Shown in pieces: positions 14,500 through 57,438 of a stretch of DNA of 64,000 nt (the first letter of the stretch is position 1; every line of letters begins with the position of its first letter). Position numbers and translations under genes: made by a program. The notes below the pieces were generated by a model. It made no database searches. It saw only the letters and a list, made by a program, of their open reading frames with translations, and was not told where the DNA came from. The DNA lies in NCBI GenBank assembly GCA_017403085.1, contig JAFQOQ010000009.1, positions 69,066-133,065 on the forward strand. Reading direction: 5' to 3'. Source of the stretch: Alphaproteobacteria bacterium. GTDB lineage: Bacteria > Pseudomonadota > Alphaproteobacteria > Rs-D84.

Positions 14500-14532
14500 T
14501 TATTTAATAATAATTATTGTTGTTTGTTTCAT
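14500..14532 (-). CDS. Ile-rich leader peptide MKQTTIIIIK
   Basis: ATG AAA CAA ACA ACA ATA ATT ATT ATT AAA TAA directly upstream of the attenuator hairpins and ileS. Confidence 0.85.
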   Translation of the reverse strand: MKQTTIIIIK

Positions 14533-18298: not shown

Positions 18299-18502
18299 TT
18301 ATTTCAAACCATATGGAGCCAGGATTTTCGCCTGTCCAACCATGTTATCGTTCAAATACTGTGGTTTAGAACCCGCGTTGTTTGCACGTGCAGATTTTTT
18401 ACGCAACAGTTTCTTGTGAGCATTACGAGCAACGCGAATCTTGCCGGTTGCAGTCATAGACGCACGTTTCTTTAAGTACGACTTTGTTTTTAATTTTGGC
18501 AT
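18299..18502 (-). CDS. rpmI: 50S ribosomal protein L35
   Basis: MPKLKTKS..KKR...TATGKI; precedes rplT. Confidence 0.95.
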   Translation of the reverse strand: MPKLKTKSYLKKRASMTATGKIRVARNAHKKLLRKKSARANNAGSKPQYLNDNMVGQAKILAPYGLK

Positions 18503-22839: not shown

Positions 22840-25077
22840 ATGAATTTACTGATTGTAGAATCTCCGTCAAAAGCAAAAACAATTGAAAAATACCTGGGGG
22901 CAGGGTGGCGCGTTATTGCGTCAGTTGGTCATGTGCGCGATTTGGTTCCGGAAAACGGCAGTGTTGATACAAATAATAACTTTGCAATGCGGTGGCAAAT
23001 TATGCCAGGCAAAGAAAAACAAATAAAACTGATTACAGATGAATTAAAAAAGGCAGATGCGGTTTATCTGGCAAGCGACCCTGACCGTGAGGGAGAGGCG
23101 ATTGCATGGCATTTGCTGGATATTTTAAAAAGTAAAAAACTGTTAAAAGATAAAAAAGTTTATCGCGTTGCATTCCACGAAATTACAAAAAAAGCCGTAC
23201 TGGCCGCAATCAAAGAACCACGTGAAATAGATACTAATTTAGTTGATGCATATTTGGTTCGACGCGCACTGGATTATCTGATTGGGTTTGGTGTTTCACC
23301 ATTGTTATGGCGCAGAAATCTGGGAAAATCTGCGGGACGCGTGCAATCTGTTGCCGTGAAATTAGTGGTAGATAGAGAAAAAGAAATCGAAGAATTTAAA
23401 CCTGTGGAATACTGGTCGCTAGAATCAGTATGTCGCGCACAAGATGCAGATTTTAAATCAATGCTGGCACGATTTGATGGTAAAAAAATCGAAAAGATGA
23501 CCATCGAAAATAAAGACCAGATTGATAATATACTGGGCAAAATCGGTAATCCTGAAATTCGCGCAAACGTTATAAATGTCGAAAAAAAGAAAACTATGCG
23601 CAAGCCGGCGGCACCATTTACAACATCAACACTGCAACAAGAGGCAGCGCGAAAATTATACTTTGCATCAAAACGAACAATGAGTGCGGCACAACACCTG
23701 TACGAACAGGGGTTGATTACATATATGCGTACAGACGCAACAAACCTGAACGCGGATGCAGTAAATGAAATTCGCGCATTTATTGCACGCGAATATGGTG
23801 AAAATTTTGTCCCAAAATCACCAAATGTATATGCAACAAAATCTAAGAACGCCCAGGAAGCACACGAAGCAATCCGACCAACACATTTTGACGCACCAGC
23901 CACTGGTTTAACCGGGGACGAGGCAAAATTATATGACCTGATTTGGAAACGCACAATTGCATGCCAGATGCGTAATGCAGAATTTGATTCAGTTGCCGCA
24001 GATATTGAAACGGAAAACCATGTCGCTGTTTTCCACGCAGTTGGTTCAACGCGTACATTTGATGGATTTACAAAAGTTTATACCGAAGATAAAGACGACG
24101 AAGAAGATAAACGTGAATCTAAGTTGCCCGTACTAAATATTGGGGACGAGATAAAGATTACAGAACTGGTTCCAGAACAACATTTTACACAGGCGCCACC
24201 AAGATATACCGAAGCGTCTTTGGTAAAAAAATTAGAAGAACTGGGTATTGGACGACCTTCTACGTATGCAACAATTATGAGTACGATTGTCGATAGAAAT
24301 TACGTAGAACAAGATAAACAAAGACGTTTCCACCCAACATCAGGCGGATGGGTTATTGCATCGTATCTGAATAAATATTTTACAGATTTGGTCGATGTTA
24401 ATTTTACCGCAAAAACAGAAGATACGTTGGACGATGTTTCAAATGGAAAACAAGATAAGATTTGCGCATTGAAAAACTTCTGGCAACCAACAGATGCAAT
24501 GATTGATGGCGCACGCGGTGTAAAAACCAGCGATATTATTGATGAAATAAACACGTTTATGCATAATCATTTATTTGCAGATGGTAATGATACATGTCCG
24601 GAATGTGGTGGAAAACTGGGGATAAAATTATCAAAATTCGGACCTTTTATTGGTTGTGAAAAATACCCAACATGCAAATATACAAAACAACTTAGCAAAA
24701 CAGATAAAACGACACAGACCACAGAATCCGCCGTACAGACAAAATCAGACGCAATAGAATTGGGGGACGGGATTGAATTTCGCGTTGGTAAATTTGGACC
24801 ATATGTAACAGATGGTGCAAAAAACGTCGCCGCCAAGCAATATACACACGAAACCATAACTTTGGATGCGGCACGTGAATTACTGGCCGGCGCCAAGAAA
24901 AAAGCAGAACCAATTAAAATTGGCGAAAATCCAGAAACCAAGAAAATGATTTTCTATTACCCAACAGGACGATATGGCGCGTATATTTCATCTAATCGCG
25001 TTAATGTTTCTGTCAAGGATATGCCGGATTTAGATACTGCGATAAAACTGATTAACGACAAGGCAAAGAAAAAGTAA
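22840..25077 (+). CDS. topA: DNA topoisomerase I
   Basis: IVESPSKAKTI, DPDREGEAI, SAGRVQS, ITYMRTD, QEAHEAIRPT. Confidence 0.97.
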   Translation: MNLLIVESPSKAKTIEKYLGAGWRVIASVGHVRDLVPENGSVDTNNNFAMRWQIMPGKEKQIKLITDELKKADAVYLASDPDREGEAIAWHLLDILKSKKLLKDKKVYRVAFHEITKKAVLAAIKEPREIDTNLVDAYLVRRALDYLIGFGVSPLLWRRNLGKSAGRVQSVAVKLVVDREKEIEEFKPVEYWSLESVCRAQDADFKSMLARFDGKKIEKMTIENKDQIDNILGKIGNPEIRANVINVEKKKTMRKPAAPFTTSTLQQEAARKLYFASKRTMSAAQHLYEQGLITYMRTDATNLNADAVNEIRAFIAREYGENFVPKSPNVYATKSKNAQEAHEAIRPTHFDAPATGLTGDEAKLYDLIWKRTIACQMRNAEFDSVAADIETENHVAVFHAVGSTRTFDGFTKVYTEDKDDEEDKRESKLPVLNIGDEIKITELVPEQHFTQAPPRYTEASLVKKLEELGIGRPSTYATIMSTIVDRNYVEQDKQRRFHPTSGGWVIASYLNKYFTDLVDVNFTAKTEDTLDDVSNGKQDKICALKNFWQPTDAMIDGARGVKTSDIIDEINTFMHNHLFADGNDTCPECGGKLGIKLSKFGPFIGCEKYPTCKYTKQLSKTDKTTQTTESAVQTKSDAIELGDGIEFRVGKFGPYVTDGAKNVAAKQYTHETITLDAARELLAGAKKKAEPIKIGENPETKKMIFYYPTGRYGAYISSNRVNVSVKDMPDLDTAIKLINDKAKKK

Positions 25078-26687
25078 TGGCAACCCTTAACCGCAATTTT
25101 ACCGATGAACTGCGCGCCAGATTATCAATTGTTGATGTAGTAGGGCGACGTGTGCCGTTGGTAAAAAAGGGTCAAAATTATTGGGGCTGCTGTCCGTTTC
25201 ATAATGAAAAAACACCCAGTTTTTCTGTTAATGAAGAAAAAGGATTCTATCATTGTTTTGGGTGTGGCGAACATGGCGATATTATTTCTTTTACAATGAA
25301 AGTAAATAATATGGATTTTCGGGCCGCAATCCAAGAATTAGCCAACCAAGCCGGTGTAAAAATGCCGGACTATAAACCACGCGATCCACGCGTTGTGCAA
25401 CGCGAAGAATCACTGTTTGATATATGCGAAAAGGCCGCACAGACATATGTCGAAAAACTTTTTACGCCAGATGGCGCGCATGCATTAGAATATATAAAAC
25501 AACGCGGTTTTACAGACGATATGATAAAAAAATATCGTATCGGATATGCGCCACGAAATAATATTATTGCAAATAAATATGCAGATTCTAAACATTTAAT
25601 TGAGGCTGGTTTATGTCGGCGCGGCGAATATGGTATGTATGACTTTTTTCGCGATAAGTTAATGTTTCCTATATTTAATCCCAAAGGTAATGTTGTTGCG
25701 TTTTCTGGGCGTTCATTAGATGGCAGCGAACCTAAATATATAAACACAACAGATACAGATATATTTCATAAACGCAGAACCGTATTTGGATTTAATTTTG
25801 CACGTGACGCAATACATCGCGCAAACAGAACAATTGTTGTCGAAGGACAAATCGACGCAATAAAAATGCAATGCGGTGGATTTCCAGAAACCGTTGCGCC
25901 ATTGGGGACGGCATTAACCGAAGATCATATTAGTTTGCTGTGTAAATCTAATCGTAATATAACGTTTTGTTTTGATGGTGATAATGCGGGACAAAAGGCC
26001 GCTGCGCGCGCATGCAGTATTATTATGCCGTTTGCACGTGATACATCTGATATAAAATTTGCATTTGTGACAGGTGGCAAGGACCCTGATGAAATTTTAA
26101 AATCCCAGGGACAAGACGCCATGCGCAAGATTATAGACGATGCGGTGCCACTGGTTGATTTTTTATGGAATTTAACAAATGCAAGTTTTGTTGTTTCAAC
26201 CCCGGGCGGACGCAGCCAGGCAGAAAAATTCTTGAAAAAAGAAATTGATAAAATCACAGATCCTGATTTTAAATCTGAAATAGAAAAAGAATATAACGCA
26301 CGTAAATTTAATTCGTGGCACAAGTGGAAACGCACGGATTCCGCCGTACAGATAAAATTGCCTGATATTGATACAATTACAAAAAATACGTTGGTTTATA
26401 TTGTAAATACGTTCCCAGAATTGGGCGAACGATATATGGATTTTTTAGGGACATTGAACATCGATTTTGATGGAAATGCCGCAGATTTAAATTTAGATCT
26501 GACTGCGGCTGAAAAATATATAGTTTCATTAAAAATTCAACGTCATTTAGAAAAACTGAATACACAAAAACAAAATTTGATGACACAATTATTGTCCGGT
26601 GACGAAGGTGTTCGTAATCAGATTTCACAAATTGATGAAGATATAAAAAAATATCAGCAAAAATTAGACACACTAATTTCAATGTAA
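25077..26687 (+). CDS. dnaG: DNA primase
   Basis: CPFHNEKTPSF zinc ribbon, PKYIN, VVEGQID, FDGDNAG, KDPD. Confidence 0.97.
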   Translation: MATLNRNFTDELRARLSIVDVVGRRVPLVKKGQNYWGCCPFHNEKTPSFSVNEEKGFYHCFGCGEHGDIISFTMKVNNMDFRAAIQELANQAGVKMPDYKPRDPRVVQREESLFDICEKAAQTYVEKLFTPDGAHALEYIKQRGFTDDMIKKYRIGYAPRNNIIANKYADSKHLIEAGLCRRGEYGMYDFFRDKLMFPIFNPKGNVVAFSGRSLDGSEPKYINTTDTDIFHKRRTVFGFNFARDAIHRANRTIVVEGQIDAIKMQCGGFPETVAPLGTALTEDHISLLCKSNRNITFCFDGDNAGQKAAARACSIIMPFARDTSDIKFAFVTGGKDPDEILKSQGQDAMRKIIDDAVPLVDFLWNLTNASFVVSTPGGRSQAEKFLKKEIDKITDPDFKSEIEKEYNARKFNSWHKWKRTDSAVQIKLPDIDTITKNTLVYIVNTFPELGERYMDFLGTLNIDFDGNAADLNLDLTAAEKYIVSLKIQRHLEKLNTQKQNLMTQLLSGDEGVRNQISQIDEDIKKYQQKLDTLISM

Positions 26688-26688
26688 A

Positions 26689-26745
26689 AAAATAAAACAC
26701 CGGCTTTTTTGAACATTTTTATCAAAAAGGCCGGTATTTTTAACA
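26689..26745. repeat. About 57-bp repeat, copy 1 (two 16-bp palindromes 31 bp apart)
   Basis: AAAACACCGGCTTTTT (26694-26709) and AAAAGGCCGGTATTTT (26725-26740). Confidence 0.85.
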
Positions 26746-26804
26746 AATTGATTCGGTTTATTAAGTTATTGACATAAAATATTTTTGTGCTAATAATAAA
26801 TATT

Positions 26805-27752
26805 ATGAAAAGATTATTAACACGCGATGAATTTTGTTATTGGTTGGATAACAATTTTACATGGTCGCCTTTTTTTAAGATTACTAATTTGTGCAATTAT
26901 TGTTGCGCACATTGTTGCGAACGCAGTTCCCCGAACGAGGCACCAACATTTATCCCAATGGCAGATATTCGCGCAATCACAGAACAATTTAAATATGTAA
27001 AAAACAAAATGCCAGTTGCTGTGGTTAGTGGTGGCGAACCAATGATGACATATAAACACGTGCCATATTATATTCCACAGATAATGAAGGTATTACACAA
27101 GGCCGGATTTGCAATTGAATTAAAGACAAATGCAGGATGGGTACTGACAGATGCAGCCGACAGGATTTTTAACGACCAAACCGAATTCTTTGCAAAAAAT
27201 CCACATGCGTATTTTTCGTATCATCTGTCACTGGACAGATTTCACCCACAATCATTAAAAACAACCGTGGAATTCTTACGATGGTATTATGAAAACGATA
27301 GAATATCAGACAAGGCAAGCGTACATTTGTTCTTTGATGATGCGCAATTTGTGACTGATACTTTTATGAGCCTGGCAGATAAATATAATATTATGCTAGA
27401 TATGGAACGCAGACCAACAAATGAATTTGCTAAAATTGGGGCAAATTTATTCAGCGGCAAAGAAAAGTACATTGTTATTGAACCATATTCTGGTATTGAT
27501 AATCGTGGTCGCGCACGCGATAATGGTATTTGGACAAAACAAAATACGATTTTAAAATCTTTTTCAAACGCGGGCGATACACACGCAATAACATTTGATA
27601 ATAATGGGTATTCTTATTTTGACTGCGCCAGCGACCGTGTGAAAGTACCATACAGAAACCAACGCGGAAAAATAAAAACAATAGAACAGATAAAACGCGA
27701 ACTGTTTAATTTGTTATACGACAAATACATCATCGAAGAAACACAAAAATAA
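26805..27752 (+). CDS. Radical SAM protein of unknown function
   Basis: CNYCCAHC (CxxxCxxC), SGGEP, KTNA, SLDRFH; TTGACA box upstream at 26769. Confidence 0.85.
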   Translation: MKRLLTRDEFCYWLDNNFTWSPFFKITNLCNYCCAHCCERSSPNEAPTFIPMADIRAITEQFKYVKNKMPVAVVSGGEPMMTYKHVPYYIPQIMKVLHKAGFAIELKTNAGWVLTDAADRIFNDQTEFFAKNPHAYFSYHLSLDRFHPQSLKTTVEFLRWYYENDRISDKASVHLFFDDAQFVTDTFMSLADKYNIMLDMERRPTNEFAKIGANLFSGKEKYIVIEPYSGIDNRGRARDNGIWTKQNTILKSFSNAGDTHAITFDNNGYSYFDCASDRVKVPYRNQRGKIKTIEQIKRELFNLLYDKYIIEETQK

Positions 27753-27803
27753 AACACCGGCTTTTTTGAATATTTTTATCAAAAATGCCGGTATTTTTTA
27801 ACA
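27746..27803. repeat. About 57-bp repeat, copy 2
   Basis: AAAACACCGGCTTTTT (27751-27766) and AAAATGCCGGTATTTT (27782-27797); near-identical to copy 1. Confidence 0.85.
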
Positions 27804-27813
27804 TTTTTATTTT

Positions 27814-28893
27814 CTAGTTATTAAACAAGAAATGACAAATGTCACCAGGTTGCATGATATAATCACGGCCGACCAGACGCATTTTGCCAGCCTCTTTAAC
27901 CGCAACTTCGCCGCCCAATGAAATAAAGTCAGATGGTGATATTACTTCGGCACGGATAAAACCTTTTTCAAAATCTGTATGGATTTTACCAGCCGCCTGG
28001 GGGGCAGTCATGCCGACAGTGATTGTCCATGCATGCGCTTCTTTTGGGCCAATTGTGTAATATGTTTGCAGGCCAAGTGTTTTGTATCCTGTCTTGATAA
28101 CCTGGTCCAGACCAGATTCAGATAACCCCAGGTCATCTAAGAACATTTTCCTTTCGTCTGGGTCAATAATCTGGGATATTTCCATTTCTATCTTTGATGA
28201 AATGACCAAAACATCTGCAACATCACCAAATTTTTGTTTTACCATATCAGAATATTTATTCCCGGTGGCGGCCGCAGATTCTTCGACGTTGCATACATAA
28301 ATTACAGGTTTGGTTGTCAGCAAATTAAATGGTGTTGAATCAATTTCCGCCATACGGGCCGGTATAAATTTTTCCAGATTTGCCTTTATCGCGTTTGCGT
28401 CAGCCAATAATTTAATTGCATCTTTATCCAGACCACGTGCCTTTTTTTCCAGATTTTTAATCTGTTTATCAATGCTTTCAAGATCAGCCAGCATCAATTC
28501 TGTTTCGATTGTTTCAATGTCGGCCAACGGGTCAATACGACCATTAACATGCACAATATCATCGTTTTCAAAACAACGAACAACATGAATTATTGCGTCT
28601 GTTGATAAAATATTGCCCAAGAATTTATTCCCAAGACCTTCGCCCGCAGACGCGCCCTTGACCAGGCCCGCGATATCAACAATTTCAAGTTGGGTCGGTA
28701 TGATTTTTTGAGAACCTGCAACACGCGCCAACGCATGCAATGTCGCATCAGGTACAACAACACGGCCCGTGTTTGGTTCGATTGTGCAAAATGGATAATT
28801 TTGCGCATCGGCGGCGGCACTTTGTGTCAAGGCGTTAAATAATGTAGATTTACCAACGTTTGGCAGGCCTACAATTCCACAATTGAATCCCAT
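27814..28893 (-). CDS. ychF: Redox-regulated ATPase YchF
   Basis: GIVGLPNVGKSTLFN, NYPFCTIEPN, DIAGLVKGAS.GEGLGN, IHTDFEKGFIRAE. Confidence 0.97.
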   Translation of the reverse strand: MGFNCGIVGLPNVGKSTLFNALTQSAAADAQNYPFCTIEPNTGRVVVPDATLHALARVAGSQKIIPTQLEIVDIAGLVKGASAGEGLGNKFLGNILSTDAIIHVVRCFENDDIVHVNGRIDPLADIETIETELMLADLESIDKQIKNLEKKARGLDKDAIKLLADANAIKANLEKFIPARMAEIDSTPFNLLTTKPVIYVCNVEESAAATGNKYSDMVKQKFGDVADVLVISSKIEMEISQIIDPDERKMFLDDLGLSESGLDQVIKTGYKTLGLQTYYTIGPKEAHAWTITVGMTAPQAAGKIHTDFEKGFIRAEVISPSDFISLGGEVAVKEAGKMRLVGRDYIMQPGDICHFLFNN

Positions 28894-28920
28894 AATTAAA
28901 TCCTTTATAATGGTCACAAT

Positions 28921-29589
28921 ATGTCATACATGTGGAATGAATTCAACATAAAAACCATGCGCGCGGAAACTATTGTTTATCGCGATGGTGTGTATTGTCC
29001 TGATTTATCAACATTGGAAAACAAGCCAATAGATAAAAAATACGATTTACCTGTTCATATTATATATGTTGGTGAAATTTCAGGTGAAAATAATCTGAGT
29101 GTAAATATTACATGCCAGGATCAACAGGTGGTGTTGAGTGTAAATGTAAAAAATAAAAAGCCGGCTTTTTTGAACATTTTTATTAAAAACACCGGGAAAA
29201 ATTCAGAAATTCGTGGAACGGTATTTTTAGAAAACAATTCTGAATTAAAATATAATTGTGTGGCGCATCATATGTGTAAAAATACGGCTATTTTGATAAA
29301 AAATAAACTTTTAGCCGGAAAAAAATCGGTATCGGAATTATCTGGGGTGGCAATAATTGATACAAATTGCCCGGGGTGCGCGTCTGATGTTGGATTTGTT
29401 GCGATGGCCGACGAAGGCGCCAAAATTATATTTAAGCCAGAACAAAGAATAAGTGCAGAACCATTGTCTGCGGAACATAGCGCGGCAATATATCGCCCGT
29501 CAGATTTTCAAATTCAATACCTGCGTGGCGCGGGTTTATCCGGGGCCGAGGTTGATTTAGCCATGAAGGAAGCCTTTATGAGTGAATAA
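28921..29589 (+). CDS. SufB/SufD-like beta-helix protein
   Basis: C-terminal P.QRIS....AEHSAAI...QIQYLRGAGLS..E resembles the SufD C-terminus. Confidence 0.6.
   Translation: MSYMWNEFNIKTMRAETIVYRDGVYCPDLSTLENKPIDKKYDLPVHIIYVGEISGENNLSVNITCQDQQVVLSVNVKNKKPAFLNIFIKNTGKNSEIRGTVFLENNSELKYNCVAHHMCKNTAILIKNKLLAGKKSVSELSGVAIIDTNCPGCASDVGFVAMADEGAKIIFKPEQRISAEPLSAEHSAAIYRPSDFQIQYLRGAGLSGAEVDLAMKEAFMSE
29150..29201. repeat. Repeat copy 3, inside the SufD-like CDS
   Basis: AAAAAGCCGGCTTTTT (29155-29170)-TGAACATTTTTATTA-AAAACACCGGGAAAAA (29186-29201), read as KNKKPAFLNIFIKNTGK. Confidence 0.8.
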
Positions 29590-29866
29590 AATTTCAATAT
29601 GTAATATAATTTGCATGTCATCAGGTGGAGCAACCCTCACAAGCACAATACGTTGTACCCAGAATCCGCTTATAAACAATATGGTATGCAGTGGTTGTTC
29701 CCAGTGTCCAAATCACAAGGATGGCACAACACCAACATCTGCCGCAGGCAGTATGGATATTACAGATTGCTATGTGACAACAAACCAAACATGGACAGAA
29801 ACGGATGCGTCTGGGACAAAAACCAGTCGATTTAAATCAACATGTTCATATAAGGAAAATGAATAA
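29582..29866 (+). CDS. Small Cys/Thr-rich hypothetical protein
   Basis: GTG start overlapping the upstream gene; CSGCSQCP...SAAGSMDITDCY...CSY; followed by terminator. Confidence 0.6.
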   Translation: MNKISICNIICMSSGGATLTSTIRCTQNPLINNMVCSGCSQCPNHKDGTTPTSAAGSMDITDCYVTTNQTWTETDASGTKTSRFKSTCSYKENE

Positions 29867-29893
29867 AAAAAACCGCCGATTGGCGGATTTTTT
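29865..29893. terminator. Bidirectional terminator
   Basis: AAAAAACCGCCG-AT-TGGCGGATTTTT. Confidence 0.75.
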
Positions 29894-30026
29894 ATTTCTT
29901 CTTAAAGCCCTGTTTTGCTTTGAACTTTGGGTTCGAAGGGTCAATTAAGATAACTTGCTTTCCACGACGGATTTGTTTTACATTACCGCGTTTCTTCCAA
30001 GCCTTTAAGGAACTTAAAAATTTCAT
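29892..30026 (-). CDS. rpmJ: 50S ribosomal protein L36, Cys-free (type B); absent from the ORF track
   Basis: Own translation MKFLSSLKAWKKRGNVKQIRRGKQVILIDPSNPKFKAKQGFKKK; AAGGA SD. Confidence 0.92.
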   Translation of the reverse strand: MKFLSSLKAWKKRGNVKQIRRGKQVILIDPSNPKFKAKQGFKKK

Positions 30027-30049
30027 ATCAAAATCCTTTTTACATGGCG

Positions 30050-30320
30050 ATTATAAACATATTTTTTGAAAAATCAAATAATAATATTAATTATTGTTGT
30101 TTTTGTAGGCCCTGTTGAAATTGTTGAAAATAGTTTTTTAGTTTTTTATAAACAAATTTTCAACAATAAAATGCCGGGATTTTCCGGCTTTTTTGACGGT
30201 TTGTTGAAAATTAGACCGGTTAAATTAACAGTTGAAAAATACCGGTGTTTTTAACACTTTTAACAAAAAAGGCCGATTGCTTTTTGTGCTTGTTGAAAAT
30301 TGTTGAAATTGTTATAATTC
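30050..30320. other. Probable replication origin oriC
   Basis: AT-rich 30050-30105; 9-mers TGTTGAAA(A/T) at 30113, 30122, 30202, 30291, 30301; TTTTCAACA at 30157; AGTTGAAAA at 30230; visible switch to G/T-rich + strand downstream. Confidence 0.7.
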
Positions 30321-30339
30321 ATATACCCAGGGGAGAATA

Positions 30340-38230: not shown

Positions 38231-39136
38231 ATGAAAACACCGTGGTGGTTTCTTTATAAAACGCCGTTGTCTTTTATTTTGTGGCCGTTTTCATGGATTT
38301 ATTATTTTGTGGGACGGGTGGTGTTTTTTGTGCGACGCATCCGTGCGATTAAATCGCGACGCCCGATAATCTGTGTTGGAAATATTTTTGCAGGTGGGGT
38401 TGGCAAGACGCCAGTTGTGCGTGCCATTGCGACGTATTTTGATGCGCCAGTTGTTATGCGTGGGTATAAAAAAAGCGCAAAAACAGGTAATGTCGGGGAC
38501 GAGGCGTCTATGTTGGCGCGAAGTGGGTTGGCGGTACATGTAGGGGATAGAAAAAGTAATGTTATATTGCTGAACAAGCAGATGGATGAAAATGGGCCAA
38601 TTGTTATGGATGACGGTTTGCAAAATCCGACAATAAAGAAAGATGTGGCAATAATTGTTTTTGACGAAGGGTTGGGGTATGGAAATGGGTTTTTGTTGCC
38701 GGCAGGCCCCTTGCGCGAGCCAAAAAGCGCAGCAGAAAAAGCAGATGCGATAATTGTTATTCGTAATTCAAAACCAAAAAAGAAATTTGTGTTGCCGGCT
38801 GGGGTGCCGGTGTTCTATGCTAAAAATAAGACTGTGTCACCATATTCTGATGGGGAAAAATTGGTGGCGTTTGCGGGAATTGGATATCCAAAAAAGTTCT
38901 TTGGTGCGTTGAAAAATGTTGTGGCAACACGTGCGTTTCCAGATCACTACCAATATACAGATGAGGATTTGGAAAAGTTGTTTGCGCTGGCAAAAAGAAA
39001 AAAGGCAAAGTTGGTGACAACTGAAAAAGACTGGGTGCGATTGCCAGAAGACGCGCAAGAAAAAATTAAATATGCGCAATTGGATACGGTGATTGATGAC
39101 AGATTCTTTGATTGGATAAAAGGAAAAATAAAATGA
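38231..39136 (+). CDS. lpxK: Tetraacyldisaccharide 4'-kinase
   Basis: VGNIFAGGVGKTP, GDEA, MDDGLQ, LLPAGPLRE, FPDH, TTEKD. Confidence 0.95.
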   Translation: MKTPWWFLYKTPLSFILWPFSWIYYFVGRVVFFVRRIRAIKSRRPIICVGNIFAGGVGKTPVVRAIATYFDAPVVMRGYKKSAKTGNVGDEASMLARSGLAVHVGDRKSNVILLNKQMDENGPIVMDDGLQNPTIKKDVAIIVFDEGLGYGNGFLLPAGPLREPKSAAEKADAIIVIRNSKPKKKFVLPAGVPVFYAKNKTVSPYSDGEKLVAFAGIGYPKKFFGALKNVVATRAFPDHYQYTDEDLEKLFALAKRKKAKLVTTEKDWVRLPEDAQEKIKYAQLDTVIDDRFFDWIKGKIK

Positions 39137-45292: not shown

Positions 45293-45435
45293 AAATAAAT
45301 TATAATAATTCATCTACAGCCAAAAACACCGGCTCATGTATGTTTAATACACTACGCCGGTGTTTTTAACTGTATCTAAATCATTCTAATTTATTTTTAC
45401 ACCACGCAAGGGGTGTGGGGAAAATCTTTTATTGT

Positions 45436-50353: not shown

Positions 50354-51016
50354 ATGAATGTGAAAATTGAACAATCTTGGAAGGATGCCCTGGGCGCGGA
50401 ATTTGACAAGGATTATTTTGTTAAGCTGACTGATTTTGTGCGCGGGGAATATTTATCGGGCAGGGCGATTTATCCAGCACCACAGAATATTTTTAATGCA
50501 TTTAATTTATGCCCATTGGATAAAGTCAAGGTTGTTATAATCGGACAAGATCCGTACCATGAACCAGGTCAGGCGCATGGGTTGTGTTTTTCAGTGTTGC
50601 CACCAACGCCAATTCCGCCGTCTTTGATAAATATTTACAAAGAAATTGAATCTGACCTGGGGCGAAAATCTGTCACAAATGGTGATTTGACACACTGGGC
50701 AAACCAAGGGGTGTTGTTGCTGAATTCTACACTGACGGTGCGGGCGCACGTGGCGGCATCGCACGCGGGACGTGGCTGGGAAGATTTTACAGATGCGGTT
50801 ATTCGTGCGGTCGCAAAACGCGAAAACATTGTGTATATGTTGTGGGGGGCTTATGCCCAGAAAAAAGCCGCGTTTGTAAATCCTGAAAATAATTTAATTT
50901 TGAAAAGTGCGCATCCGTCACCGCTATCTGCGTATCGCGGTTTCTTTGGTAATAAACATTTTAGTCGTGCAAACCACTATCTGGCCCAGCATGGCGCGAC
51001 GCCGATTGAGTGGTAA
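50354..51016 (+). CDS. ung: Uracil-DNA glycosylase
   Basis: IIGQDPYH, QAHGLCFS, GVLLLN, HPSPLS. Confidence 0.97.
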   Translation: MNVKIEQSWKDALGAEFDKDYFVKLTDFVRGEYLSGRAIYPAPQNIFNAFNLCPLDKVKVVIIGQDPYHEPGQAHGLCFSVLPPTPIPPSLINIYKEIESDLGRKSVTNGDLTHWANQGVLLLNSTLTVRAHVAASHAGRGWEDFTDAVIRAVAKRENIVYMLWGAYAQKKAAFVNPENNLILKSAHPSPLSAYRGFFGNKHFSRANHYLAQHGATPIEW

Positions 51017-51041
51017 AAAAATCCCGCATGTGCGGGATGTT

Positions 51042-51599
51042 TTAGAAATTATATGTTATTCCCAGCCCGTAAAACGCGTATGAATTATTTTCCGGCGCGG
51101 TGTTGCCGTTGGAAAAATGTTGCACAAATGCCTCAATACCGATTTGGTCTGATATGTGATAGCCGGTGCCAAGTTTAAATCCAAAGACCAGTTTTGACCC
51201 GATGCGTTCGTTCTGTTGTAATTGCATGCCGGCCCCCAGCCCCATAAATCCATACCAGTCGTGACAATGGAACAGGGCGATGTCTTCGGATATGACAGCC
51301 ATCGGAATCGTAAAGTCGTCCCAGTGCCAGCCGTATTTTTCGCCATAACCAACGTTCATTACAATATTTATAGACTGACGTGCCGGCAGGCGAAAAAATG
51401 TTGTCGGCTGAGAATATTGAAATTCAAACATGGTGTATGGCACAAATTGTGATGGCGGTGGTATTAAAAATCCGCTATTTACACCGGCACCGGCGTTGAA
51501 AGCAATTTGGTTGTCGTATCCGTTAAAGAACGGGTTTGTATCTGCCATGGCGGTCGCCCCAACAGATGATATTATCAAAGCACATAAGATTTTTTTCAT
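51042..51599 (-). CDS. PagL/acyloxyacyl-hydrolase-like outer-membrane beta-barrel
   Basis: Signal peptide; QHFSNG...N motif; terminal YNF. Confidence 0.7.
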   Translation of the reverse strand: MKKILCALIISSVGATAMADTNPFFNGYDNQIAFNAGAGVNSGFLIPPPSQFVPYTMFEFQYSQPTTFFRLPARQSINIVMNVGYGEKYGWHWDDFTIPMAVISEDIALFHCHDWYGFMGLGAGMQLQQNERIGSKLVFGFKLGTGYHISDQIGIEAFVQHFSNGNTAPENNSYAFYGLGITYNF

Positions 51600-51735
51600 A
51601 GGGCGTATGGTATCATAAATTTAAGTGCGTTTCAATCCAGATTATTAAAAAAAATAATATTTGTAAATAAGAACAAAGTCAGAATGGTGGTTTTTCTTGC
51701 AATTGAAAAAAATGGTGTTATAATGCGTGGCGTTT

Positions 51736-51810
51736 GGCAGCGTAGCTCAGTGGTAGAGCAGAGGAATCATAATCCTTTGGTCGGGGGTCCGAATCCCTCC
51801 GCTGCTACCA
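51736..51810 (+). tRNA. tRNA-Met (elongator, CAT)
   Basis: GGCAGCG...GAGGA-ATCATAA-TCCTT...TCCGAAT...CGCTGCTACCA; Ile2 identity not fully excluded. Confidence 0.9.
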
Positions 51811-52107
51811 GAATTTCCCGGTGTTCCGGGATTTTTTTATTTCGTGTTATTTGCCCGAATTCATGCGATTTTGCGATTTTACGCAGATTGTTTTACATAT
51901 ACTGGACATAATCCCGGACATAGAAAATATGTTTACATGTGTAATCCTTTTGCTTGCTTTACACTATGAATTATAAAGAGGAATACACAGAAAGTCGCGG
52001 CAAAAGGTTGCGAAGGATGACAAAGGTTTACAAAGGGGTATGATGCTTTACAAAAGTAATATAAATGCAATAAAAAAACACCGCCCAATCGGGCGGTGAT
52101 ATTGTGT

Positions 52108-52428
52108 TTATGCTGCAATAGAAGTTCGTTGTTCGTTTTGATTGCTTGGAACGATTGTCATTTGAACTCCAACTGCGTTTAAAAAGTTTCTTATTGTACT
52201 AAATTCTGTACGAGTATTTTCTGTTAGTGATTTATATAATGAAGGACGGGAAACCCCCATCTTTCGAGCTATTTCTGACATGTTTCGTGCGCGAGCAACA
52301 TTATTTAATGCACGTTTTATTTCTTCGTCAGTTCCATCACTAAAAACATCTGATAGATATGCGGAGATTGCTTCTTCACTATCTAGAAACTCAGCGATAT
52401 CAAAATCGCGAATATTTAATTTTTTCAT
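52108..52428 (-). CDS. Addiction-module antidote protein (HigA/HI1420-like HTH)
   Basis: FDIAEFLDSEEAI.AYL...ALNNVARARNMSEIA..MGVSRPSLYKSL. Confidence 0.9.
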   Translation of the reverse strand: MKKLNIRDFDIAEFLDSEEAISAYLSDVFSDGTDEEIKRALNNVARARNMSEIARKMGVSRPSLYKSLTENTRTEFSTIRNFLNAVGVQMTIVPSNQNEQRTSIAA

Positions 52429-52470
52429 TTTTTTCCCTTCTTTTTTTTGTTTTTATTGTTGCCCTCTTGT

Positions 52471-52794
52471 TTATACCTCCTTTGCCATTTCCTGCGCTTT
52501 TTTTATATCCTTGTTTTGAGTTGATTTGTCGCCTGCGCATAACAGGAATACAATTGTTCGATCTCTTATTGTGTAATATATTCTGTATCCAGGCCCCTGG
52601 TTGATTTTTAGCTCTGAAACACCACCTTTTACAGATTTATGGTTGCCGAAATTACCTTCACTAATTTGGTATAGTCTGCGCAATACTGCTGAACGTAACC
52701 TAAAATCTTGTTGTTCGTATAGCCATTCTGCAAATTCTTCTGTTTGTTTAACTATATACCGTGTCATTACATGTTTTTCCTTTTTGTCTTTCAT
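52471..52794 (-). CDS. RelE/HigB-family addiction-module killer protein
   Basis: F.EWL...D......RL.....GNFGNHKSV.GGVSELKI.QGPGYRIYY...LLCAGDKSTQ.KDI. Confidence 0.92.
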   Translation of the reverse strand: MKDKKEKHVMTRYIVKQTEEFAEWLYEQQDFRLRSAVLRRLYQISEGNFGNHKSVKGGVSELKINQGPGYRIYYTIRDRTIVFLLCAGDKSTQNKDIKKAQEMAKEV

Positions 52795-53030
52795 AATTAT
52801 TTATATTTTGTATTGTATCCTATAGAATACAAAAAGTCAAGTAAAAAATAACTGTTAATTGTTATGTTTTACAGAAAGCTCATGATATATGCCTTGTATG
52901 AAGTATTGTTGCTTATAATTTTTTTGCAATAATATAAAAACAATATAAAATAAATATAAATAAAAAATACTTGACAAGAAAGAATATGTGTTTGATAATC
53001 TATATCAAAATAAAACAAAAGGAAAACAAT

Positions 53031-53663
53031 ATGCCTTTAACAAGATGGACGAATGTACAAACTAAAAACACAAACAAAGAACCAAAGGTGTCGATTCTGC
53101 CTAATGGTTTGTTTCTTTTTAACAAAGCATCAAAAGATACGTTCAAAATTCCAGAAACATGTAAATATGTACAATTGTATTATGATGAAGATACACAACA
53201 GGTTGTTTTTGAATTTGTAAGTACTACGACTGATGAAGTTCCGGTGAAAGTACACTTTAGCAAAACAGGAATGCATTTTTCTGCCAAAGGGTTTATAAAA
53301 TTATTCCAAACAAAAATTGAAGAAACCACACAATTTATAGTAAAAAAATATAAAACAAATAGCCTGATGACATATCTGGATAAACAACTACATGAAACAC
53401 AAAAGACAACCAGAAGGCCTGTGTTAAACTTTATTGAGATGGGGATACCAATTGGCTCAACATTGGTCTATACCAAGAATAAAAATATTACAGCCAAAGT
53501 AATTTCGCATAATAGGGTTGAATTTAATGGTCAAATTTATGCGCTGTCATCGCTAACTAAGGATTTGAAAGATTTGTCCTATTATTTAGCACCATGTGGA
53601 TTTTGGACTTATCAAGGCAAGAAACTATCCAATATTTATGATGAAACTTATTTGCAAAAATAA
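53031..53663 (+). CDS. Protein with C-terminal RAMA-like domain
   Basis: RRP.LNF.EMGIP.G...V.F.G....LS.L......P..FWTYQGKKL..IY.ETY. Confidence 0.55.
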   Translation: MPLTRWTNVQTKNTNKEPKVSILPNGLFLFNKASKDTFKIPETCKYVQLYYDEDTQQVVFEFVSTTTDEVPVKVHFSKTGMHFSAKGFIKLFQTKIEETTQFIVKKYKTNSLMTYLDKQLHETQKTTRRPVLNFIEMGIPIGSTLVYTKNKNITAKVISHNRVEFNGQIYALSSLTKDLKDLSYYLAPCGFWTYQGKKLSNIYDETYLQK

Positions 53664-53968
53664 ACACCGCCCAATTGGGCGGTTTGTATTTGAAATGTTT
53701 TACTGTTCTGTAACTTCTTTGGCTTTAGTTTTGTGTCAGAAACACAAGAAAATAAACTAATCAATAATAAAGAGCTACCAAATATAATTGCATAAATAAA
53801 TTCTAAACACAGAATACTTGACACCAAAGCTATGGTTTGTTCCCTTGGAATAACGGCCATCTTTGTTATTATTAAGGAGTAAATAGGGATAAACATTATA
53901 GAAAACCACAGCCAAGATATTTTTATTCCTTGTTGTATTTTATTTATGTATTCAACTCGTTTTGTCAT
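53648..53968 (-). CDS. Hypothetical membrane protein
   Basis: Two TMs; last gene of the minus-strand operon; 3' end runs through a terminator hairpin. Confidence 0.5.
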   Translation of the reverse strand: MTKRVEYINKIQQGIKISWLWFSIMFIPIYSLIITKMAVIPREQTIALVSSILCLEFIYAIIFGSSLLLISLFSCVSDTKLKPKKLQNSKTFQIQTAQLGGVYFCK

Positions 53969-53989
53969 ACTGTAATCTCTTCGTATATA

Positions 53990-54766
53990 CTATTGAATGC
54001 CCATTTGTTTAAAACGCTTCATGGTGTCAGAGTCTATACAGCGTTTGAATTTTCTAGTACGCTTGAGGCTTCCTTCTTTATTTCTATATTTCATATCAAT
54101 GCCGGTATCTTGAAAAACACCACCTAGCCACTTTTCACCATCAACAAAATGTTTGTCTATACGATTTTTTACAACAAAAAAGGTTAGAGGCCAATTGTTA
54201 TCAGCTGCTGTCATTCGATACTGTTCGTCAACAATAACCATCAGTCCTTCATCGGTTTGCTGATGGGTACGATAAACTTCATCGTATACCAATACAGATT
54301 TTTCAATATCACAACCTGTTTCTTTTTCCCATTTTTTAATAAATGCATTTAGTTCTTCTGCCTTCTTTTTCTCTTCTTTTTCCTTTTGTTTTGCTAATTC
54401 TGCAACTTCTTTGTCTTTCTTTTGTATATATGTGTCTATTATCCCAGAAGAGCACGAATATACCGTTTCCTTATCCAAATCAATTCTCTTTTTTCCCCAC
54501 ATAAAATACTCATTGGAATCTTCTGTCTTTTCTTCCAATTTGCACATATCCTTATTTTTTTTATCGTTTAAATGGACGATAAAAGTATCATCTATTTTGT
54601 ATGTGGTAGCAGCTAAAGACATTGCGTCTTCGTTTGTAATACAAACATAATCGCTATCTAATGAATTTCTATGGGCTTCATTGACATGGTAGCATTTGTA
54701 GGGTTTTTGGATATACGAACAGCCAAAAAGTAGAGTAACCAAAGATAGAAAAAATGTCATTTTCAT
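53990..54766 (-). CDS. Hypothetical lipoprotein
   Basis: Lipobox LLFGC; central coiled coil. Confidence 0.65.
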   Translation of the reverse strand: MKMTFFLSLVTLLFGCSYIQKPYKCYHVNEAHRNSLDSDYVCITNEDAMSLAATTYKIDDTFIVHLNDKKNKDMCKLEEKTEDSNEYFMWGKKRIDLDKETVYSCSSGIIDTYIQKKDKEVAELAKQKEKEEKKKAEELNAFIKKWEKETGCDIEKSVLVYDEVYRTHQQTDEGLMVIVDEQYRMTAADNNWPLTFFVVKNRIDKHFVDGEKWLGGVFQDTGIDMKYRNKEGSLKRTRKFKRCIDSDTMKRFKQMGIQ

Positions 54767-54776
54767 TTGTCGTCCT

Positions 54777-55298
54777 TTATTTAACATAATAAATATCCTG
54801 TTTGTCGCATTGCTTATATAATATTTCTGCGGTTTTTACATCTTCAGGACAAGAATAAAACATGACTTCTGCCGCACTGCAATAGAATGCCACATTTTTA
54901 TATATACATCCAAAGTATATTGTTATATCATTTTTTTGTATGATTTGAGTATATGAGTCTTGGCTAGAAAACTTTATCGTCATCAACTTTGTGTTGTCGG
55001 GTTCTAAAGCGTCATAAATATATTTCATTAGACCATATTGACTAAAAGGTTGTCTTTTGCACACTCCATCAGAGTTTTTCTTCATATGTTTTATGTGTTT
55101 GGTTATTTCTGATTTTTCTTTGGAAGCGAATGTCACATACATAATTTCTTTTGTATTGGAATTATAATATGAAGAGCATTTGTATTCGTGCCATTTATCC
55201 TTTTGGGTGGTTATGTGTGCGACAAAACAAATGCACGCAATCATTAATGTGACAATAACAATAATTAAATAACTAGGAATTATAAGCCTTTTTTTCAT
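54777..55298 (-). CDS. Exported Cys-rich hypothetical protein (paralog B)
   Basis: N-terminal TM; C.YK...F.C...CP....AE.L...C. Confidence 0.65.
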   Translation of the reverse strand: MKKRLIIPSYLIIVIVTLMIACICFVAHITTQKDKWHEYKCSSYYNSNTKEIMYVTFASKEKSEITKHIKHMKKNSDGVCKRQPFSQYGLMKYIYDALEPDNTKLMTIKFSSQDSYTQIIQKNDITIYFGCIYKNVAFYCSAAEVMFYSCPEDVKTAEILYKQCDKQDIYYVK

Positions 55299-55308
55299 GA
55301 TATTCCTC

Positions 55309-55893
55309 TTATTTTAAAAGTTCATTAGGTGTGTATTGGCATATGGATTTTAGCGTTTCTGCTTCATGTTCTGTTGCAGGACAATCCCATTTGATTGGGG
55401 AATATTGTTCTGTGTGACATTCGTATCTTGCTGTTTTATATTGACAGACAATAAGCTCTTTTGTGCCAAATCGACTAAAAAAATCAACCTGATACATATC
55501 TTTTTTTAGGGGATATCTTTGTACTGCTAAATTAGCCCCCAACGGATTACCAGATTTCAATATTTCCAGCAAGTCCATGTTACCGTTCATCTTGTCTAAT
55601 ACTTGATATAAAGAAAAAGCAGTTTTCGTTTTTTTGTTCATTTTTATGTGATAATCACCTTTGTCAAAACAAAAATATCCAGTATTTTTCATATGAAAGG
55701 TTATCTCATTAATAAGCATTTGGTCATCGGAATAAAAAATATACACAACCTGATTTTTTGCATCTAAGCAAGCTCGTTCTATATTATCATTTTTGTGATT
55801 GCCTGTTGTACAATATATTACTCCGACAATAATGCATACGCATACAGCTAAGAGCCATAAATATATTTTTCGATTATTCTTTGTAATAGCCAT
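55309..55893 (-). CDS. Exported Cys-rich hypothetical protein (paralog A)
   Basis: N-terminal TM; C.YK...Y.C...CP....AE.L...C. Confidence 0.65.
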   Translation of the reverse strand: MAITKNNRKIYLWLLAVCVCIIVGVIYCTTGNHKNDNIERACLDAKNQVVYIFYSDDQMLINEITFHMKNTGYFCFDKGDYHIKMNKKTKTAFSLYQVLDKMNGNMDLLEILKSGNPLGANLAVQRYPLKKDMYQVDFFSRFGTKELIVCQYKTARYECHTEQYSPIKWDCPATEHEAETLKSICQYTPNELLK

Positions 55894-55920
55894 AACGAAC
55901 TCTCTCAATTAAATAAAAAG

Positions 55921-56155
55921 TTAGACCGCCATAGGATGTTAGGCGGTCGGGGAGTTCTCAAATCAGCGTATTAGTGATTCTGTTGTTTTCGGGTTGCCCC
56001 TGTTGTATAGCAAACAGCTCCCCGACTTATACAAGTCAGGGATAAATCACGACACAAAACCACAGGAATGACATCGGATGACGATGCCGTCAGTAATTTT
56101 GCACCGAATACGCTGGGCTTGAGATAGCCCCGAACCCATATCCCTATGGATTCAT
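55921..56155 (-). ncRNA. Structured leader RNA switch (C4-like), copy B
   Basis: Minus strand: TCTCAA/TTGAGA, CAGCGTATT/AATACGCTG, CCCTGACTT/AAGTCGGGG, alternative GTCGGGGAG/CTCCCCGAC overlapping GACCGCC/GGCGGTC hairpin; promoter TTGAGA..TAGACT at 56188-56161. Confidence 0.7.
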
Positions 56156-56358
56156 TTCATAGTCTATCACTAAAAATCAAAAATCTCAATTAGATATTAA
56201 AAGTATGGATTTTGTATTTGGTATGATTGAGTAGGGGTAAAAACTTTACATAGAAAAATGGTGTGCCGGTGAAAGTGGCGGTGTTTATTTCCCAGTATGG
56301 GAGGTTGACTTTTTTTGTGATATTCAGAATAATACAGGTGATTATACGAAAAGGGGAA

Positions 56359-56862
56359 ATGTTTATGCGTAAATTGTTATTGGCATTGTTGGCGTTGGTG
56401 CCGTCATCTGTTATGGCAAATCCGGCGTGTCCGGTATGTACGATTGCCGTTGGGGCGGGGCTGGATATTGCGCGTCGTTTGGGCGTGCCGGACAGTATTG
56501 TTGGGCTGTGGGCCGGGGCGCTGTTGACGTTGCTGGGGTATTGGATGTTGAAATTTATGGACAAGAAAAATTGGCATTTCCGTGGACGCGATGCGATTGT
56601 TATTGTTTTGTCCGTTGCGATGATTGGGTTTGTTTATCTGGGGACTGTACAATATAATCCAGTTGCGATTTGTGGTGGATTGGTTATGGATCCGGTGTTA
56701 TTCGGCACGATTTGCGGTGCGTTGATATTTATTGGAACTGGTAAATTGTATCAATGGATGAAGGCGAAAAATGGTGGGCATGCGCATTTTCCGTTTGAAA
56801 AGGTTGTGTTGCCGATTGTCGCATTGGCATTGGCCAGTTGGGCGATGATGTTGTGTTTTTAA
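56359..56862 (+). CDS. Membrane protein with N-terminal CPVC motif
   Basis: Signal peptide then ACPVCTIAVGAG; four TMs; HFPFEKV. Confidence 0.75.
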   Translation: MFMRKLLLALLALVPSSVMANPACPVCTIAVGAGLDIARRLGVPDSIVGLWAGALLTLLGYWMLKFMDKKNWHFRGRDAIVIVLSVAMIGFVYLGTVQYNPVAICGGLVMDPVLFGTICGALIFIGTGKLYQWMKAKNGGHAHFPFEKVVLPIVALALASWAMMLCF

Positions 56863-56877
56863 GCAAGGGGTGTTGAA

Positions 56878-57438
56878 ATGAAAAAAATAGAATCTGTTCA
56901 GGAATTTGTTGAAAAGTTGGATGCGGCAAAAAAGGTTAATCCAAAGGATTTGTCAAGCGACCAGGATTTGACAATTGGTATTATGAACCTGATTTCAATC
57001 GAAGAACATTTAATGTTTTCGGGTGCGAAAACCGGCAAGACACAGTTCTATGATTTGATTAATGAAGTGCGCGAAATGCGTAAAAACGCCATGCTGAAAA
57101 TTATTCCGGCGTACGAAGGTGAAGTGTGGTGTATTTCAAAGCATTTGTTGGCGGCCGCTATGCGCGTGTTCGAAGTTGGGACCAAGGCATTAGCCGCGGG
57201 GGACAAGGAAACAGCGTATTCCCTGTTTGACCAGTCGTATGAATTGTATTGTATGTTCTGGGGATTGAATATGGGGATGTTGACCGGGGACAAGAAAGAT
57301 GTGAAAGTCGCCAAGAAGGTCGCACCAGCCAAAGCCGCCCAAGCACCAGTTGTTGCCAAAGAAGAAAAAACAGCCAAAGGTGGTATGGGCAAGTTGAAAA
57401 GTTGGGTAAAAAATGCTGTGAATTGTTGTATTGAATAA
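56878..57438 (+). CDS. Hypothetical protein with EEH, WCISKH and C-terminal CCIE motifs
   Basis: Co-oriented with the CPVC protein, followed by a terminator at 57437-57462. Confidence 0.75.
   Translation: MKKIESVQEFVEKLDAAKKVNPKDLSSDQDLTIGIMNLISIEEHLMFSGAKTGKTQFYDLINEVREMRKNAMLKIIPAYEGEVWCISKHLLAAAMRVFEVGTKALAAGDKETAYSLFDQSYELYCMFWGLNMGMLTGDKKDVKVAKKVAPAKAAQAPVVAKEEKTAKGGMGKLKSWVKNAVNCCIE

Follow-up and report, generated by a model that had tools for sequence, protein, structure and literature searches.

We report here that a 64-kb stretch of DNA from an alphaproteobacterium of the GTDB lineage Rs-D84 (contig JAFQOQ010000009.1; hereafter the window) carries copies of a palindromic element with two CCGG cores phased 31 bp apart, and that this element is a conserved, region-restricted cis-element of Rs-D84. 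A preliminary description of this DNA had noticed a 16-bp palindrome, AAAANRCCGGYNTTTT, in pairs always 31 bp apart, and had taken it for a candidate non-canonical parS-like site at a putative origin. The original observation is confirmed, far beyond chance: the 16-mer occurs exactly six times in the window where 0.01 matches are expected, none of 100 shuffles reached six, and at up to two mismatches 18 matches are found against 3.07 expected. All six exact matches (starts at 26694, 26725, 27751, 27782, 29155, and 30236) lie inside 3.6 kb, between 26694 and 30251. It is the nature of the unit that has to be revised, the paired 16-mers being the arms of one palindromic element of 47-54 bp, and this element is in all likelihood not a ParB nucleation site. 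Our preferred reading, held tentatively, is that it may serve as a duplex binding site for a putative protein of the origin/partition region and take on terminator duty where it falls in spacers.

A repeat search returned each pair of 16-mers as the two arms of a single 54-nt direct repeat present in four copies, which we name D, E, A, and F in order of position. The left arm (ACCGGC, six T, GA) is complementary to the right arm (TC, five A, GGCCGGT) across a loop of 9 nt, and the core of the element reads CCGG-Y-N-T(5-6), about 13 nt (usually GAAYATTTTTATC), and A(5-6)-N-R-CCGG, the centers of the two CCGG being 31 bp apart. CCGG cores with exactly this spacing are found at 26700, 27757, and 29161, and at 30242 the spacing is the same with a degenerate second core (CCGA). 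Copy D (26688..26741, + strand) begins right after the stop codon of dnaG at 26687, with arms AAAACACCGGCTTTTT and AAAAGGCCGGTATTTT and CCGG cores at 26700 and 26731. Copy E (27745..27798, + strand), 96% identical to D, lies between a radical-SAM-like open reading frame (ORF) on the + strand and ychF on the - strand, and includes the TAA stop of the former. Copy A (29149..29202, + strand, 81% identity) is the pair that had already been noticed inside a coding sequence (CDS): it lies in frame in a SufD-like gene, at codons 77-94 (KNKKPAFLNIFIKNTGKN) of the ORF 28921-29589. Its right outer half is non-palindromic, the partner at 29186 keeping only the left half (AAAACACCGG followed by GAAAAA). 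Copy F (30230..30283, + strand, 65% identity), in the rpmJ/virB3 spacer, is the degenerate one. The pairs at 26694/26725 and 27751/27782 therefore stand as first described, while the partners at 29186 and of 30236 are degenerate.

Neither an nhmmer profile built from three copies nor a pattern scan found a further copy elsewhere in the 64 kb, the first 26 kb included, for which the preliminary description had likewise noted no good copy. The single site reported at 30168 does exist, at one mismatch, and turns out to be a short bidirectional hairpin (30168..30194, AAAATGCCGGGATTTTCCGGCTTTTTT) in the generic terminator style of the clade, GCCGGGATTTTCCGGC followed by six T, distinct from the long element. 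Two weaker sites do not belong to the family: that at 36940 is a weak match within the end of rmlB, beside an unrelated terminator at 36983, and the pair at 45323/45351 forms the arms of a hairpin of ordinary type downstream of pilC (45322..45367, AAAAACACCGGC...GCCGGTGTTTTT), with cores 27 bp apart and an nhmmer E-value of 1.3. In Rfam 15, no family reached its gathering score, the three chance-level matches (E 0.25-0.69) falling far below it. Plasmid and phage collections gave no match to 26660-26780 with the low-complexity filter on, which may hide short AT-rich matches. Judged by eye only, the element does not fit integron attC, the CtrA consensus (TTAA-N7-TTAA) or that of IHF; avoidance of CCGG as the sign of a restriction system was not seen in the window (observed/expected 1.12).

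To what extent is the element shared? GTDB genome contigs were scanned once with the exact pattern CCGGNNTTTTNNNNNNTTTTNNNNAAAAANNCCG, which returned at least 139 loci with at least 145 distinct matches on at least 109 contigs, 80 of the loci with 2-kb flanks; eight loci (unrelated taxa or apparent chance) and one truncated locus were set aside and 136 matches kept. Nearly all matches listed stem from gut or rumen metagenome-assembled genomes (MAGs) labeled Alphaproteobacteria, Candidatus Enterousia, or Rickettsiales. Their source is the reduced-genome alphaproteobacterial order Rs-D84 (Candidatus Enterousia), whose genomes are mostly below 1 Mb (PMC12306168). Among the matches listed, the 29 contigs that are 150 kb or longer (together 8.78 Mb, two contigs of unrelated taxa having been dropped) carry 40 exact matches, one to three each, and in the nine with two or more, the matches span 1.1-45.8 kb on contigs of up to 959 kb. 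Because there are only one to three copies per contig, with spans of at most 45.8 kb, the element does not behave as a repeat scattered over the genome, nor is it the terminator in general use in the clade; many dispersed copies with polymorphic sites were not seen in the exact-pattern scan of these contigs, among the matches listed. By gene, the matches listed fall 54 times in the SufD-like CDS, 12 times in gidA/mnmG, and 12 times in gidB/rsmG, where parA and parB come next downstream. Of the remaining matches, most are in spacers: immediately behind the parB stop (L006, L076, and L093), between gidB and parA (L032), immediately behind gidA (L070), between dnaG and ychF (where 23 of 48 relatives' contigs have the exact element), behind pheT or rmlD, and upstream of virB3. 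An in-frame element was also found in lpxK of three more distant MAGs (L017, L054, and L067; peptide PEFLAKIFKNTG in L054), and no such copy was seen in the lpxK of the window (38231-39136). The element is, in sum, a low-copy cis-element across the order Rs-D84, confined to a neighborhood of about 45 kb that comprises dnaG-ychF-sufD-like-virB3, gidA, and gidB-parA-parB. The constancy of the 31-bp spacing claimed for the window extends to relatives, including long elements outside the scan pattern: three were found by regular expression with cores 31 bp apart (one borderline at 32), and 31 bp was also counted by hand in further non-pattern spacer copies (e.g., L026, L039, and L052), the T-run varying from five to eight with the total length unchanged. 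No description of the element, or of the ParB variant discussed below, turned up in literature listings, that for Enterousia included, or in passages of one paper on Enterousia.

The exact pattern is present in the SufD-like gene of 55 of 62 relatives' contigs, and in 16 contigs ascertained through another site, the SufD-like copy is exact in nine, near-exact in three, and lacking in four. The seven SufD-like orthologues without the motif have a segment of the same length (e.g., NATINININNNG in place of PAFLNIFIKNTG), and GidA of L070 reads TQEWYDKIYNKKREII without a gap where others have SPPAFLNKMNKKAGKI; since the motif-less orthologues have equal length, the SufD-like and GidA copies are not insertions. 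GidB of L032 is about five residues shorter at the position of the element. The choice of codons indicates that it is the DNA that is conserved. In the PAFL rung of the SufD-like peptide, the Pro codon is CCG in every P-bearing orthologue printed, and in eight of the eight rows picked that have a PAFL-type rung, while CCG makes up 24% of the Pro codons of the window; the Ala codon is GCY, which accounts for 19% of the window's Ala codons; and in the preceding PVFL rung, the Pro codon varies between CCG, CCA, and CCT. From these sequence comparisons, we conclude that the CCGG cores are under synonymous-site constraint inside genes. Where a copy is missing, others are found close by. Of the four species devoid of the sufD copy, three (L011, L039, and L052) carry a pair of long elements between dnaG and ychF, and the fourth (L051) has one long element and a short hairpin there; L070 has no copy in gidA and one just downstream of it; L032 has none in gidB and one in the next spacer. 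As judged from such cases, the turnover of sites is compensated by nearby copies. Ongoing gene conversion between copies was considered and rejected, as sufD and spacer copies are no more alike within genomes (identity 0.643) than between them (0.634; 1792 of 5000 permutations as high), so that each lineage must maintain the common consensus, and the loop with it, on its own. A second site suspected in gidB (L110, and variants with cores 21 bp apart) was dismissed as chance, as it simply encodes the conserved RLFLLKGR motif.

Is it the duplex or a hairpin that matters? As RNA, copy D folds at -20.8 kcal/mol (z -4.2) and copy E at -19.1 kcal/mol (z -5.8 and -7.0 for the + and - strands), and a stable G+C-clamped hairpin followed by a U-tract at the 3' end of a gene is found for these two and for most intergenic copies, which from their sequence probably act as bidirectional intrinsic terminators. 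Copy A folds no better than shuffled sequence (z 0.02 on + and -0.49 on -), and the same is true of copy F, which does not adopt the hairpin fold of the element, and of the gidA copy (z -1.4 and -1.3). The common sufD variant has z -0.8 in sense and -2.6 in antisense, and the gidB copy gives the only strong fold among in-gene copies (z -4.7). The gidA and gidB copies have a U-tract on neither strand, and together with the + strand of the sufD copy they lack the anatomy of a terminator. Covariation was evaluated on 54 intergenic copies (52 of the 67 unclassed matches plus two window copies, leaving out six in-gene or unclear loci and nine unrelated or truncated loci): 81.1% of cells pair, against 79.7% in shuffles, and covariation is no higher than chance in this set (score 0.106, compared with 0.101 for shuffled alignments, of which 158 in 500 scored at least as much); a count by hand agrees. 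What is common to all contexts is conserved sequence and length, not pairing. Rare codons that keep CCGG, poor folding, and the lack of covariation thus suggest that selection acts on the sequence of the DNA and not on hairpin formation, and the earlier remark that the site is "not just a terminator" is borne out by the conserved in-gene copies and by this selection at the DNA level.

It is tempting to propose that the element works as double-stranded DNA read by a putative protein, which would mark or organize the region proximal to the origin and partition genes, the intergenic copies doubling as bidirectional intrinsic terminators. Protein binding and a chromosome-organizing role are our interpretation of the anatomy, distribution, conservation, and DNA-level selection described above, and several observations weigh against it. 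The minimum of the cumulative GC skew in the window falls at 18 kb and not at 30 kb, and canonical DnaA boxes are not enriched over the window (27 against 23 expected). All four in-gene contexts (sufD-like, gidA, gidB, and lpxK) share the frame P-x-F-L ... K-x-x-G, which is also expected of a tolerated inserted peptide. Upstream of virB3, only two of 25 relatives have an exact element. The scan pattern fixed 20 of 34 positions as well as the 31-bp spacing; being exact, and read from the matches listed, it partly ascertains both the conservation at the fixed positions and the regional confinement, and diverged copies elsewhere in these genomes would escape it. Further observations on that side are the position of the intergenic copies, which is just that expected of terminators; the 25 of 48 dnaG/ychF spacers devoid of an exact element, many of which have instead a short CCGG hairpin whose arms are the same; the terminator-like hairpin, with a U-run behind it, on the minus strand of the common sufD variant; and the one pair flanking the cores (12/48), which does exchange both sides (CG 17, AU 13).

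The main rival is accordingly a terminator-derived palindromic repeat family, in which the element would be an enlarged form of the clade terminator (A-run, NRCCGGY stem, T-run) that has spread locally. We regard this as a serious possibility, though one that we would not bet on, and we give a similarly limited credence to its extension to these compact genomes, whereby the in-gene copies would be antisense or read-through terminators, insulators, or mRNA hairpins. The likeness to bidirectional intrinsic terminators and to SPRITE-like repeats consists in an A-run, a G+C-clamped stem and a T-run, location where convergent genes end (between dnaG and ychF and behind parB, gidA, and rmlD), strong folding of copies D and E on both strands ahead of U-runs, and frequent replacement in relatives by short hairpins with the same arms; SPRITE of S. 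pneumoniae is itself a terminator-like repeat (PMC10969869). The sufD copy has its minus-strand hairpin and U-run upstream of ychF, and the gidB copy folds well. Gene packing is very tight in this clade, ychF and the SufD-like gene being divergent with start codons 3 bp apart (28917/28921) and nth and gidA of relatives convergent with a 1-bp gap (1752/1754 in L080); promoters and terminators must therefore lie within neighboring genes, and between gidA and nth there is no room for a terminator. On the other hand, intrinsic terminators do not account for in-gene copies of gidA and gidB that lack a U-tract on either strand, for gidA and sufD (+) copies that fold no better than shuffles, for the absence of compensatory covariation, for confinement to one region, or for a conserved loop and a 31-bp length that termination does not need. 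In addition, 14 of the 23 dnaG/ychF spacers with a long element hold a separate hairpin or a second element (hand count), the other terminators of the window have unrelated stems, and the best-conserved copy lies inside a gene.

A more specific version of our preferred reading, the duplex binding site, would make the element a second, ParB-independent set of centromere-like or origin-organizing sites, again read by a putative protein, in a lineage whose ParB/parS pair has moved off R173/G201 (see below); this is speculative, and we would sooner expect it to fail than to hold. Each site would be a 35-bp inverted repeat with its two CCGG cores three helical turns apart, written into the sufD-like gene, gidA, and gidB by substitution and kept by selection. 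RacA/ram, MatP/matS, and Noc/NBS are region-specific site arrays of chromosome-organizing proteins, and the element resembles them in that short palindromic cores are repeated within one chromosomal domain; its CCGG is neither avoided nor otherwise special in the window, and no homologue of these proteins was seen, no search aimed at them having been made. The phasing of the two cores also resembles that of the GATC pairs bound by SeqA. For SeqA to bind efficiently in vitro, two 4-bp palindromes have to face the same way at a distance of two to three helical turns (PMC5145175). Recognition of the element might likewise depend on methylation.

That the element is a selfish miniature palindrome akin to the Rickettsia palindromic elements (RPEs) or to MITEs, inserted in frame into genes and spacers of an ancestor and then inherited vertically, appears improbable. 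It would suit a palindromic repeat in a reduced-genome alphaproteobacterium translated in the same frame within four unrelated genes (sufD-like, gidA, gidB, and lpxK), the difference of about five residues that goes with the gidB copy, and the gain or loss among close relatives of the radical-SAM-like cassette between direct copies. RPEs are about 150 bp long and reach 44 copies in R. conorii (PMC10969869), whereas the element, at 35-54 bp, is some three times shorter, occupies few fixed positions rather than dozens (one to three exact copies per contig, in one neighborhood, among the matches listed), replaces sequence of the same length, and has synonymously constrained CCGG cores; the plasmid and phage collections, searched with the low-complexity filter, gave no match. 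For sufD-like and gidA, an RPE-like insertion is ruled out by the equal-length orthologues.

The relation to ParB deserves separate consideration. No canonical parS is found in the window at up to two mismatches, as the preliminary description had stated, and at three mismatches there are four matches against 3.9 expected. In relatives, all 14 contigs covering the gidB/parA junction (L004, L006, L032, L038, L047, L053, L062, L065, L076/77, L094, L101, L110, L128, and L131) carry one or two near-canonical parS-like palindromes TRTTTCAYRTGAAAY(A). The two members of a pair lie about 60 bp apart, upstream of parA or at its promoter (sites written TRTTTCAYRTGAAAYA), and the palindromes match 12-15 of the 16 canonical positions, with A at position 1 in most half-sites. 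A mismatch-tolerant parS scan of about 350 kb of loci plus the window gave only three other matches at up to two mismatches; the weak match of the window is at 14525 (chance expectation 0.62). At the position of Caulobacter R173, ParB of nine relatives' contigs has E (GKS-E, eight contigs) or V (GKS-V, L006), together with S at G201, two positions reported as invariant in ParB. Among the 150 best ParB representatives, R173 is present in 141 and G201 in 139, and the combination of E and S is confined to the three closest relatives. R173 makes a bond to guanine 1 of parS and is never lost from variants that bind parS; deep mutational scanning found it invariant in such binders, and in extant ParB its conservation is absolute, while S or T is tolerated at 201 (PMC7383237). 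The loss of R173 can be attributed to the A at position 1 of most parS-like half-sites, and K171, S172, N178, and R204, the contacts that read the TTTCA core (PMC7383237), are retained. The TRTTTCAYRTGAAAY(A) sites are hence predicted to be the natural cognate of the E/V173, S201 ParB, in what looks like a natural case of ParB/parS co-evolution.

By comparison, the 16-mers of the element share with parS (TGTTNCACGTGAAACA) only the central C|G and A/T-rich flanks and have nothing of the TTTCA core; their outer half differs by context (AAAAANCC, AATTTCCC, and TTTTTCCC), and conservation bears on the 35-bp inverted repeat as a unit rather than on the 16-mer. Like parS, the element is palindromic, present in few copies near parAB and gid genes, tolerated in coding sequence, and conserved across species; unlike parS, it is an inverted repeat with cores 31 bp apart, and relatives own separate parS-like pairs at the parA promoter. 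The proposal that each 16-mer is a non-canonical parS bound by a ParB of altered specificity, as two dimers three turns apart, is therefore very unlikely in our view: it can draw on the location of sites within gidA and gidB, between gidB and parA, and immediately behind parB, on the small number, clustering, and tolerance within genes, on the unusual residues of ParB, and on a half-site whose positions 1 and 6 are A and C, as in the Noc site (PMC7383237), and is opposed by the parS-like palindromes in 14 of 14 junction contigs, by the retained core-reading residues, and by the near absence of likeness to parS. Its author had reasoned that a canonical parS cluster elsewhere, with no protein binding to the motif, would refute it, and a cluster of near-canonical sites is what the gidB/parA junction of relatives holds; the suggested look at ParB specificity residues revealed unusual ones that fit the parS-like sites. 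Of the parS-like element as first conceived, what stands is a conserved low-copy cis-element in one neighborhood, and what is not supported is its assignment to ParB.

As to an origin, the gene neighborhood includes gidA and gidB-parA-parB in relatives, whereas the window itself has no parA, parB, dnaA, gidA, or gidB (Pfam). An origin at the 18-kb skew minimum was rejected, the spacer being only about 55 bp long and 18299-18502 being an rpmI-like ORF as read from its translation. A putative origin is suggested only by a conserved cluster of DnaA-box-like 9-mers at 30.1-30.3 kb: an array of TTGTTGAAAA / TTTTNAACA boxes (30113..30310, in both orientations) upstream of virB3, with five exact TTTTNAACA boxes within 180 bp (30122-30299) of the rpmJ/virB3 spacer. 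TTTTNAACA occurs 23 times in the window against 13 expected, nine of the 23 in 26.7-30.3 kb, and is one step from the relaxed DnaA box. Upstream of virB3, 25 of 25 relatives have an array with two to ten copies of TTGTTGAAAA. The element itself also contains the box (TTTTGAACA), and a further one lies along its 3' flank (TTTTTAACA). The spacer itself (30027-30339) is AT-rich, contains the boxes in both orientations, and ends in a promoter-like site, TTGTTG-N17-TATAAT. From its sequence, the array could be an oriC with variant DnaA boxes or the operator array of the vir operon.

As to the genes around the element, Pfam gives the order pheT, pheS, and rplT (all -), mreC, pbp2, rodA, topA, and dnaG (all +; dnaG at 25077..26687), copy D, the radical-SAM-like ORF (26787..27752, +), copy E, ychF (27814..28917, -), the SufD-like gene (28921..29589, +; SUFBD_core, E 2.5e-8; conserved in 62 relatives) with copy A, a 94-residue ORF, rpmJ for ribosomal protein L36 (29892..30026, -), a 313-bp spacer with copy F, virB3, and virB4. 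The radical-SAM-like ORF scores just below the Pfam cut-off (29.1 against 29.5 bits), is flanked by the direct copies D and E, and is found in few relatives (L013/14, L019/20, L081/82, and L105/106), being absent in most others; L121 lacks it although its YchF is 99% identical to that of the window. This looks like a cassette either gained, or lost via recombination between the repeats D and E. The 94-residue ORF (29582-29866) is cysteine-rich, has no Pfam match, and has the genes for the SufD-like and radical-SAM-like proteins as neighbors; it could encode the precursor of a modified peptide. Relative to the window, CADAFS010000011.1 (L041, L050) has the pheT/gidA block inverted and on the other side of the sufD copy, and in the window gidA is missing next to nth, which indicates that the region has been rearranged. 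Three contigs labeled Muribaculaceae (L079, L097, and L103) have the element in the ychF/sufD-like context of Rs-D84 and are probably mis-binned. Counted over all 64 kb, GATC shows strong avoidance (36 occurrences where 227 are expected, ratio 0.16) and AGCT a moderate one (0.56), which suggests restriction pressure at these sites. Finally, the stretch 51000-56000 is low in G+C (0.32 against about 0.42), with six ORFs (52971-57438) lacking a Pfam match, and may be an island or a set of fast-evolving surface genes.

Should the element prove to be a protein-binding site, it would represent a new kind of domain-specific chromosomal landmark, shared by a whole order of uncultured gut bacteria with genomes below 1 Mb, and a clear example of how a signal in the DNA can be written over the codons of three housekeeping genes. 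Beside it, the lineage with the E/V173 and S201 ParB offers a direct natural test of how the specificity of ParB can move.

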